Part shown: positions 26,493-29,079 of the stretch, piece by piece
How positions within the stretch are numbered: position 1 is the first letter of the stretch
Layout: every line of letters starts with the position of its first letter
NCBI GenBank assembly: GCA_027031765.1
Contig: JALVPN010000040.1
Location: forward strand, 53,265 to 85,264
Reading direction: 5' to 3'
From: Promethearchaeota archaeon
GTDB taxonomy: Archaea; Asgardarchaeota; Thorarchaeia; Thorarchaeales; Thorarchaeaceae
Length of the DNA stretch: 32,000 nucleotides
The notes under the pieces: generated by a model
What the model saw: only the letters and a program-made list of their open reading frames with translations
Databases searched by the model: none
Told to the model about the DNA's origin: nothing
Made by a program: the position numbers and the translations under genes

Positions 26493-26500
26493 TTTAAATA
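26493..26500 (+). promoter_or_regulatory. TATA box candidate for the roadblock-DENN-GTPase operon
   Basis: TTTAAATA about 125 nt upstream of TTG 26626. Confidence 0.5.
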
Positions 26501-26625
26501 GCCCCTTCACGACTCCATTCCGATTGGAATGTCTAAAGGCAGACCTAGGGCTGGCAGTGCAGTCCGGGCGCACTGTGTGCACGAGTGGCACAGGGCCACA
26601 CGAACGAGATGTGGGAGATGATGTA

Positions 26626-27570
26626 TTGAACGACCTGAGTGACACGCTACAGAACATCAAGATGATTACAGGAGTTGAGAATGTGGTCCTGGTGCAGAAG
26701 GACGGGGTGCCTGTCGCAAGTGCCGGGGTATGGTTTAGCAAGGAAGAGGTCTTTGCCGTTGCATCGTCCGCTTCTGCAATCTTTGGGGTCGCCCGTCTGA
26801 TCCACAACGACTTCAAATACCTCCTGATGGAATCGGACACGTCAAAGGTGTTCTTGGCAGCGCTGCCCAATGACCCCGACTACTTCCTGACAATCACGAC
26901 GGCCCCACGTGTGAACCTTGCTGCACTGTTCATTGAAATGCGCAGAAACCTCTCCCACCTGTCCTTTCTCCTACGACAACAGGCTGAAGGCCGCGCACCA
27001 CCTCTCAGATCGTATAGCCTCGACGAGACCCAGAGGGTGCTCCGGGGGTTTGCCGTTTCAGAAGGTGACGGGACATCGTATGTGCTCTCACGCACAGTTG
27101 TTTCACTTGACCGCAGTCATGCTGTTGCTCTCCGGTCACTGCTCCGACAGATCAGCGACAGCATCCCACGTGTGAGTTCGGTATTCCTATCACTCACCGG
27201 AGGCGTCCGGATTTCGCTGGACGGGTTCACTGATGACCGCCTTGCGGCCATGTCATTTGCGCTGCACGATGCATCGGAGAGAGTAATCCGTACCCTCCGC
27301 AACAGTTCTCTGGCGACTGTTCTCTGTGAAACCGACTCGGTGAGACACTTTACATACTCAGTTCCAAACGGCGTCTTCAGCCTCTGGGTGGAGAAGTCGA
27401 GTCAGAAGCTTGGCTTGATGCGACTGCTCCTGAAACATTTCATCACGGAGATGCGGCGAGTCCTGGCATCGGCATCGGTTGTCAGACCATCCATCCCGGC
27501 AGACCTGAGGGAACTGCTGCTGTCAGGGATTTCCGAAGAGTCAATACTGATGACGAGGCGAGAACAATGA
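26626..27570 (+). CDS. Tandem Roadblock/LC7 (MglB-like) domain protein
   Basis: Domain 1 LQNIKMITGVENVVLVQKDGVPVAS...AVASSASAIFG...NLAALFIEMRR; domain 2 LLRQISDSIPRVSSVFLSLTGG...LAAMSFAL...KLGLMRLLLK. Probable TTG start at 26626 after GGAG. Confidence 0.85.
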   Translation: MNDLSDTLQNIKMITGVENVVLVQKDGVPVASAGVWFSKEEVFAVASSASAIFGVARLIHNDFKYLLMESDTSKVFLAALPNDPDYFLTITTAPRVNLAALFIEMRRNLSHLSFLLRQQAEGRAPPLRSYSLDETQRVLRGFAVSEGDGTSYVLSRTVVSLDRSHAVALRSLLRQISDSIPRVSSVFLSLTGGVRISLDGFTDDRLAAMSFALHDASERVIRTLRNSSLATVLCETDSVRHFTYSVPNGVFSLWVEKSSQKLGLMRLLLKHFITEMRRVLASASVVRPSIPADLRELLLSGISEESILMTRREQ

Positions 27571-28487
27571 CGTACTCGGTTCTCCGGCTGATTGAGGTCA
27601 TGGGTGACCAGTTCTCCGAACTCCTCAACACAGTCCTGACCAGGGTTCCGGTTCTGGTCGTTGGCAAGGACGTTGAACTTGTGGATGACCTTACGGAGAG
27701 CCTTGCTCTCCTGTGCCCACATCGGCGCAAGCTGCTGTTCTGGCGGGACTTCACAACCGAAGAGGAGATACAGACCGTCTGGGACGAGGAGAAACACGAC
27801 TATGAAGTGAGCCGCACTGTGGTCATTGGGCTGGCGTCAAATCTCAGACTTGCTCTTGACAGGATATCACAGTTCATGGGGTGGATAATGTCGGTACCGC
27901 TGGAGATATCAATACTCGGACTACGTGTGACCGAGGACTCGTTATCAGATGTGGTCGACCGGGTTTCAGGTCCCAATGGAAACTGCGGAGTCCTACGCGT
28001 TGAGTCACCTTCGGTAATGGCCTTCTCGCTGGCCCGCCAGAGGACAAGCACCCTTGCTGTCGAGCGGCGCATAGTATCCAAAATCCTGAAGAGGAAGCAC
28101 CAGTCACTTGAGCGTATCCGACGACTCCTCAAGAAGTCACTACGGGGAGTCCCGCAATCAAACAGCCTCCTCAGTGTAGTCCTGCAACTTGACGACGAGT
28201 CGGAGAAGATAACGCGCGACGTCTTTGACGAGGAGATTGGCATCTATGTACATGCGGCCCGCCGTGCTGTAACGCTGCTCTCAAGGATACGACTTGCAAG
28301 AGAGTTTGATGTCCCGGCCGAGCTCACAGAGCGGAACCTCTGCGAGGCCATCGGTTGGGACGGTGGCGCACTGACAGACTTGCTGCAGTTCATGCGTGCC
28401 GAGTGGCATGAGGACTTCTCGGACTGTGTCAAGGGTAGCACCCTGTCCGACCTCGGAGCATGGGTGGACAGTATGTGGGGTGGTTAG
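27567..28487 (+). CDS. Stand-alone DENN-like (folliculin C-terminal-like) protein
   Basis: FSELLNTVLTRVPVLVVGKDVELVDDLTESLALLCP resembles the cDENN core; start overlaps the roadblock stop (ATGA). Confidence 0.7.
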   Translation: MTYSVLRLIEVMGDQFSELLNTVLTRVPVLVVGKDVELVDDLTESLALLCPHRRKLLFWRDFTTEEEIQTVWDEEKHDYEVSRTVVIGLASNLRLALDRISQFMGWIMSVPLEISILGLRVTEDSLSDVVDRVSGPNGNCGVLRVESPSVMAFSLARQRTSTLAVERRIVSKILKRKHQSLERIRRLLKKSLRGVPQSNSLLSVVLQLDDESEKITRDVFDEEIGIYVHAARRAVTLLSRIRLAREFDVPAELTERNLCEAIGWDGGALTDLLQFMRAEWHEDFSDCVKGSTLSDLGAWVDSMWGG

Positions 28488-28488
28488 A

Positions 28489-29079
28489 ATGATAATTGAC
28501 TATGGCAATCGCACGGTTTCGCTCAAGATTGTCTTCTTTGGTCCGGCCATGAGCGGGAAGACGACTGCAATCCGCTGGCTCTTCAATGCCTTTGGATGTG
28601 CTGACCGACTCGTATCAATTGAGAACACCGTTGGACGGACAATGTTCTGTGACTTTGGAACACTGTCGTTTGACCTTGGTGGTGGGTGGCGAATTGACGC
28701 ACATGTGTGGTCAGCCACAGGCCAAGATTTCTACAGATCCACACGAGAAGTTGTGTTGGTCGGCACGGATGGCGTTGTCTTTGTTGCAGACTCGCAGGCG
28801 ATACTATTGAATGAGAACATTGCTAGCTGGCGCGAGCTCACAAGGATGCTGGAAGGAGGCGACAGCACATTCCCAGTGGTCGTGTGTCTGAACAAGCAGG
28901 ATTTGCCGGACTCCATAGACGAGTCCAAGTTCAGGGAATACCTTTCATTGCCAAAGTGTGTCGCAGTCTTCAGGAGCGTTGCAAAGGACGGTGTCAACAT
29001 CCTAGAGGCTTTCGAATACCTCTTCCGCCTTGCGATGCAGTCCAGCTTGCTTGCAACAACGCCGCCAATGGAGATATAG
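28489..29079 (+). CDS. MglA-type small GTPase (Ras superfamily)
   Basis: KIVFFGPAMSGKTT, GRTMFCDF, WSATGQDFY, GTDGVVFVADSQ, NKQD, SVA, collinear with Myxococcus MglA motifs. ATG 28489 lies one base after the DENN stop. Confidence 0.9.
   Translation: MIIDYGNRTVSLKIVFFGPAMSGKTTAIRWLFNAFGCADRLVSIENTVGRTMFCDFGTLSFDLGGGWRIDAHVWSATGQDFYRSTREVVLVGTDGVVFVADSQAILLNENIASWRELTRMLEGGDSTFPVVVCLNKQDLPDSIDESKFREYLSLPKCVAVFRSVAKDGVNILEAFEYLFRLAMQSSLLATTPPMEI

Follow-up and report, generated by a model that had tools for sequence, protein, structure and literature searches.

A stand-alone DENN protein without a longin domain, encoded between a tandem roadblock gene and an MglA-family GTPase gene in a Thorarchaeota genome

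Results

Organization of the locus

The stretch of DNA under study (the window) comprises 32,000 nucleotides of a Promethearchaeota archaeon from the Thorarchaeaceae family (GenBank assembly GCA_027031765.1, contig JALVPN010000040.1, positions 53,265 to 85,264 of the forward strand) and contains, in direct succession, genes for a tandem roadblock protein, a DENN protein, and a small GTPase (Table 1). Our subject is the middle gene, a real open reading frame (ORF) whose translation is identical to the peptide quoted in the original prediction. That prediction, made from the sequence letters alone, had described a folliculin (FLCN)-like protein that starts directly at the cDENN domain, and had proposed that the upstream roadblock pair supplies the missing longin module in trans. 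Structural modeling now confirms the predicted product as a stand-alone DENN protein composed of cDENN and dDENN and devoid of a longin or uDENN domain. The stop codon of the roadblock gene overlaps the start codon of the DENN gene in the motif ATGA at 27567-27570, and the DENN and GTPase genes meet in a TAG-a-ATG junction; given this overlap and the one-base gap, the three genes are tightly and translationally coupled.

Table 1. Genes, domains, and a candidate regulatory element of the three-gene locus (window coordinates).
Feature	Position	Strand	Description	Basis
TATA-box-like element TTTAAATA	26493..26500	+	located ~110 nt upstream of the roadblock start	read from the sequence
Tandem roadblock (MglB-like) protein	26611..27570	+	319 aa from GTG 26611; TTG 26626 is an alternative start	
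DENN protein	27567..28487	+	306 aa	
cDENN domain	27567..28040	+	aa 1 to ~158, three-layer alpha/beta sandwich	AF2 secondary structure
dDENN domain	28056..28487	+	all-helical, aa ~164-304; the TAG stop codon comes next	AF2 helices
MglA-family small GTPase	28489..29079	+	196 aa; ATG one base past the DENN stop codon	

Close homologues of the DENN protein, annotated as hypothetical proteins and found almost exclusively in Thorarchaeota, all measure around 306 amino acids and are 63-70% identical to it. An exhaustive HMMER search with the protein reached much further, to 57 cluster representatives with identities down to 17-35%, and the full-length ones among them nearly all span 290-310 amino acids while the remainder are shorter fragments. 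We aligned 35 members of this family as the basis for structure prediction, motif counts, and the identification of invariant columns, which number only three (R26, P28, and R53) and all lie in cDENN. One relative, P0135 (400 amino acids), exceeds the others by about 95 residues and is matched in two stretches, with residues 162-304 of the query paired with its residues 257-399; the extra length may represent an insertion or an additional N-terminal part.

Structural assignment to the DENN fold

The AlphaFold2 (AF2) model of the DENN protein, calculated from the 35-sequence alignment, reaches a predicted local distance difference test (pLDDT) of 90.4 and a predicted template modeling score (pTM) of 0.86 and folds into an alpha/beta lobe and an all-helical lobe (Table 1), the latter with helices at residues 164-191, 209-246, 255-262, 269-280, and 294-304. 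When this model was compared to 48,161 PDB representatives by exhaustive structural alignment (VIA-align), the five best solved matches were DENN modules with Z-scores of 13.5-11.3 and both lobes covered. DENND10 (8p0v_M, chain residues 156-357; Z 13.5, root mean square deviation [rmsd] 4.2) and the C-terminal domain of FLCN (3v42_B; Z 13.4, rmsd 3.2-3.3, with FLCN residues 345-555 aligned to model residues 1-281 over 185 positions) led the ranking, SMCR8 (Z 11.4) and C9orf72 (Z 11.3) were also among these matches, and DENND1A ranked eighth (Z 9.5). Similarly, a Foldseek search with the model, which the original prediction had proposed as a check, returned FLCN (3v42_A) as its top match with an E-value of 1.1e-3 and a probability of 1.00, and a shape search of the ESM Atlas returned, among its named matches, nothing but DENN families (SMCR8, FAM45/DENND10, AVL9, DENND11, and DENND6). 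One cluster in the Atlas shape search, mostly from Heimdall genomes and with proteins of about 380 amino acids, bears the Folliculin longin family.

The same alignments define where the protein begins. All those with DENN modules start at model residue 1-2 and end at model residues 281-292, and in five of six rows they start, on the partner's side, at the first residues of cDENN (FLCN 345, DENND10 156, C9orf72 202, SMCR8 702, and DENND1A 170), so the protein has no longin or uDENN domain. No such domain was found in the same chain, as judged from the structural alignments, from the length of the orthologues (about 290-310 amino acids), and from the start codon that overlaps the upstream stop codon. 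The DENN fold and the start at cDENN, as originally proposed, are thereby both borne out by the model.

The protein could alternatively be read as a degenerate P-loop or RecA-like NTPase with a helical lid and no DENN kinship. Secretion and RecA-type ATPases do align to residues 1-156 of the model with Z-scores of 8-9.9, and some of the weak Foldseek rows are AAA+ proteins. However, none of these ATPase matches extends beyond the alpha/beta lobe, their scores are lower than those of the best DENN modules, which span both lobes, and a Walker A-like motif is present in none of the 35 family members, whose equivalent loop after beta1 is variable. A P-loop-like topology without nucleotide- or Mg-binding residues is, moreover, a property of cDENN itself (PMC3521125) and is what this family displays. 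We therefore rejected the NTPase reading as highly improbable and retain the assignment to the DENN fold.

Which eukaryotic DENN protein stands closest is a different matter. FLCN and DENND10 are tied as best structural matches (Z 13.4 versus 13.5), FLCN leads in Foldseek and Pfam, and the Atlas feature search puts C9orf72-like clusters at the top, so that the comparisons do not single out FLCN over DENND10, SMCR8, or C9orf72 as the closest kin.

Sequence-level evidence

Sequence comparisons are much less telling, and two of their results count against the DENN assignment: the window's protein matched nothing in Pfam or NCBIfam at E<=1, and FLCN was not found at E<=10 in sequence or profile searches of the PDB, which gave just spurious weak rows such as LRP4 and ferritin. 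Among the 35 family members, the commonest Pfam family was Folliculin_C, yet with just 3 matches that all remained below threshold. The best of them, in orthologue P0126, had an E-value of 4.8e-4 and 20.2 bits compared to a cut-off of 27, and a further sub-threshold match was seen in P0133 (E 0.015). Folliculin_C was nevertheless the sole Pfam family with E<0.001 in any orthologue; the DENN family PF02141 reached 0.093 at best, in 1 of 35 members. Gathering scores of DENN, Folliculin_C, SMCR8_C, SPA, and related Pfam families were not reached by the window's protein or its orthologues. In the window's own genome, a six-frame search with Folliculin_C (PF16692) gave no match, and an equivalent search with the Folliculin longin profile PF11704 was uninformative because the control was silent as well.

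These profile matches bear on the claim that the N-terminus aligns nearly gap-free with human FLCN. The register of that alignment is reproduced, given that orthologue residues 5-62 pair with Folliculin_C profile positions 4-62, but the likeness is not significant by itself. In a language-model search of the ESM Atlas, the nearest clusters were C9orf72-like (which ranked first), Folliculin_C/SMCR8_C, and SPA/DENND11, and FAM45/DENND10 also ranked high. Taken by themselves, sequence methods do not establish membership in the DENN family, and it is the modeled structure that settles the question.

The upstream tandem roadblock protein

The gene upstream encodes two MglB-like roadblock domains in one chain, as indicated by Pfam, PDB profile searches, and the AF2 model in agreement with the original prediction of a roadblock pair. 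Domain 1 covers about residues 1-125 and domain 2 about residues 165-290, with a linker that carries a conserved PP motif. The protein matches the Pfam family Robl_LC7 with an E-value of 1.9e-9, and in profile searches of the PDB, domain 1 found a Thor roadblock protein (7f8m, 2.3e-6) and domain 2 found Asgard Roadblock3 (9jue_D, 6.4e-9) and MglB (4e-3). The AF2 model (pLDDT 78.7) shows two alpha-beta-beta-alpha-beta-beta-beta-alpha units, and the best structural match of domain 1 is Myxococcus xanthus MglB (6hjm_A, Z 12.9, rmsd 1.7).

Mechanical gene calling extends this ORF to TTG 26485 (361 amino acids), which is an over-extension because the orthologues, whose starts correspond to positions about 42-47 codons downstream, begin directly after a stop codon; the most likely start is GTG 26611, or else TTG 26626. 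The TATA-box-like element further upstream is a candidate archaeal promoter of the operon. The roadblock orthologues of four Thorarchaeota genomes (G296, G299, G176, and G124) were flagged as containing one internal TGA. Recoding of TGA or a broken gene was ruled out for G124 and G299, where the TGA is the stop codon immediately before the true ATG.

The downstream GTPase

The GTPase downstream is clearly a member of the MglA family rather than a Rab- or Rag-type protein. A profile built from 15 orthologues and searched against the PDB matched MglA of M. xanthus and Thermus thermophilus at 1e-43 (152 bits), with Rab11 as the next family at 3e-14 (56 bits), while the Pfam label is only Arf/Ras/Roc-like and Gtr1_RagA stays below the cut-off (E 0.018). 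The P-loop reads G-P-A-M-S-G-K-T, an NKxD motif is present, and the G3 motif is [S/T]-A-T-G-Q (S-A-T-G-Q in the window's copy) instead of DxxGQ. R50 aligns with the intrinsic Arg53 of MglA, and both this arginine and the glutamine aligned with the catalytic Gln82 of MglA are invariant among the orthologues. A second, more distant MglA-like paralogue (E around 1e-20) is encoded in two genomes of family f9, at L042:1523-2218 (+) and L044:1460-2149 (+), about 500 nucleotides past the operon GTPase and on the opposite strand.

Conservation and distribution of the operon

Of 14 loci taken from diverse Asgard families, all 14 carry the three genes on one strand in the order roadblock-DENN-GTPase. 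Across 301 Asgard genomes, the DENN family profile found a match in 165, nearly always as a single copy, and the tandem roadblock profile followed the same family-by-family pattern, with adjacent coordinates of both genes. Both are present in families f1 (DENN in 74 of 76 genomes, tandem roadblock in 76 of 76), f9 (57/68 for each), f3 and f15 (4/4 for each in either family), f24 (5/7 for each), and f12. By contrast, profile searches found neither gene in f5 (0/28), f14 (0/11), or f22 (0/21), many of whose genomes are more than 90% complete; lineages without the operon may carry fused longin-DENN proteins instead. In f27, the DENN profile had no match in 11 genomes and the roadblock profile had one. 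Two distant homologues of the DENN protein lie on contigs of 1-2 kb, one of them with an Arf/Ras-type GTPase directly downstream. Complex prediction for the three operon proteins with alignments gave scores of 0.01 and 0.00 for the DENN protein as a partner, relative to a mark of 0.32, which speaks neither for nor against binding.

Discussion

Relation to the published operon and to known DENN and roadblock systems

An operon of Roadblock, small GTPase, and DENN genes has previously been predicted as conserved across the majority of Asgard archaea, and that study likened it to the FLCN complex, proposed a guanine nucleotide exchange factor (GEF) function, and described the GTPase as Rab-like and its roadblock companion as LAMTOR1-like (Liu et al., 10.1101/2020.10.19.343400). 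The locus in our window shares the three gene families, the operon logic, and the FLCN comparison with that report, and since both the operon and the FLCN analogy were published in 2020-21, the finding was already known: the window represents a further, Thorarchaeota instance of a known operon rather than a discovery. Our results differ in that several Asgard families of the 301-genome sample yielded no such operon and, above all, refine the picture in that the GTPase scores as specifically MglA-type (1e-43 versus 3e-14 for Rab) and its roadblock partner is a tandem of MglB-like domains, with MglB itself as best structural match. DENN domains are among the known Asgard eukaryotic signature proteins, and Asgard groups of MglA are likewise known.

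How much of the split folliculin that the original prediction envisaged is left? The DENN protein resembles the C-terminal DENN module of FLCN (3v42 / 6nzd) in its two-lobe architecture of cDENN and dDENN, but identity over the structural alignment is just 14%. FLCN has an N-terminal longin domain with the arginine finger of a GTPase-activating protein (GAP), forms a pair with FNIP, and has Rag GTPases as its clients, whereas the operon encodes no longin and no FNIP-like second DENN protein, its partner domains are MglB-type roadblocks and not longins with an arginine finger, and the neighboring GTPase is MglA-type; the longin and the Rag client that define FLCN in the strict sense were thus not found in the DENN protein and the operon GTPase, respectively. 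The original interpretation is partly supported: only genomic association, in the form of translational coupling, conserved order, and co-occurrence, speaks for a split folliculin, FLCN is tied with DENND10 as a structural match, and the roadblock pair may supply the missing module in trans. DENND10/FAM45A, C9orf72-SMCR8, and DENND1A/B share the fold over both lobes and include the nearest Atlas clusters, but their longin or uDENN domain sits in the same chain, and they work on or together with Rab or Arf GTPases, or as part of Commander.

On the side of the GTPase, the closest parallel is the bacterial MglA-MglB switch, to which the operon is similar in the intrinsic arginine and the [S/T]xxGQ motif of its GTPase and in the MglB-like roadblocks encoded upstream. 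Bacterial MglB is a single-domain homodimer, however, while the operon protein fuses two divergent roadblock domains, and the bacterial system is not known to have a DENN gene like that of the operon. The GEF of the bacterial MglA-MglB system is RomR-RomX. With its MglA-family GTPase and its MglB-like tandem, the operon has the appearance of a DENN module that is unfused and acts on MglA.

A GTPase switch of three proteins and its alternatives

The operon resembles a switch of the MglA/MglB type to which a DENN protein has been added. We consider it probable that the three products form a single GTPase switch, composed of a roadblock platform, the DENN protein as a second regulator, and the MglA-family GTPase. 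In this proposal, the fused roadblock pair would be a built-in pseudo-dimer that serves the operon GTPase as a platform in the way of the MglB dimer for MglA or of longin/roadblock dimers for Rag, Rab, and Arf GTPases. Beside or on this platform, the DENN protein would regulate the same GTPase, most plausibly as a nucleotide exchange factor or as an exchange or GAP co-factor. Both the mutual binding of the operon proteins and the activity of the DENN protein (GEF, GAP co-factor, or scaffold) are inferred from fold and gene context.

Several points weigh against such a switch. The activity cannot be read from the fold, since the DENN proteins of eukaryotes comprise GEFs such as DENND1, GAPs that act via their longin such as FLCN and SMCR8, and scaffolds such as DENND10. 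Nor is it obvious that a third protein would be needed, since MglA has its own arginine finger and MglB dimers alone suffice as its GAP in bacteria. Finally, a homologue search for fused roadblock-DENN or longin-DENN relatives of 546-2000 amino acids found none, although this is weak evidence.

The last two points would also suit an arrangement without any split-folliculin complex, in which the roadblock protein is an MglB-type GAP and the DENN protein on its own an antagonistic GEF, without stable contact between them, by analogy to DENND1B, which is a GEF for Rab35. The equivalents of the MglA arginine and catalytic glutamine are indeed invariant in the operon GTPase, and in the matched DENND1 structures it is the DENN module itself that binds the GTPase. 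However, all three domains of the DENN module, including the longin, touch the GTPase in the DENND1B-Rab35 complex (PMC3521125), so that a longin-less DENN protein may need a platform, and a stoichiometric complex would account at least equally well for the roadblock and DENN genes being strictly adjacent and translationally coupled. We therefore see two separate regulators as an unlikely alternative to one three-protein switch.

Alternatively, the DENN protein could be a non-catalytic effector or scaffold that reads the state of the GTPase and connects it with further machinery, as DENND10 does inside Commander. DENND10 is the top structural match and the Atlas searches place FAM45/DENND10 clusters high, but the match is tied with FLCN and poorer by rmsd (4.2 versus 3.3), and the operon encodes no Commander-like partners. 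The three residues that stay invariant across very divergent orthologues suggest a functional site, though a binding site explains them equally well. On balance, a pure scaffold appears distinctly improbable to us, and a regulatory role within the three-protein switch remains our preferred reading.

Implications for the origin of DENN modules

The longins of DENN modules have been proposed to derive from an MglB-like roadblock, the roadblock being a structural cousin of the longin (Zhang et al. 2012, PMC3521125). Against this background, we tentatively suggest, as a possibility that we rate below even chances, that the operon is an unfused, pre-eukaryotic form of the tripartite DENN module, in which an MglB-type roadblock pair would take the place of the longin next to a separate cDENN-dDENN protein, the original client would have been MglA-like instead of a Rab or Rag, and the missing GEF of an archaeal MglA/MglB system would be the DENN protein.

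DENN proteins were long regarded as regulators of membrane-traffic GTPases that are confined to eukaryotes, and their occurrence in Asgard archaea bears on the origin of the eukaryotic endomembrane and nutrient-signaling machinery. Since gene order does not reveal the regulators of most small GTPases in Asgard archaea (PMC10933270), the three-gene unit makes a clean and tractable system for biochemical tests of the role of an ancestral longin-less DENN domain. If true, the reading of the operon as an unfused module would make the scenario of Zhang et al. (2012) for how the DENN module arose accessible to experiment.

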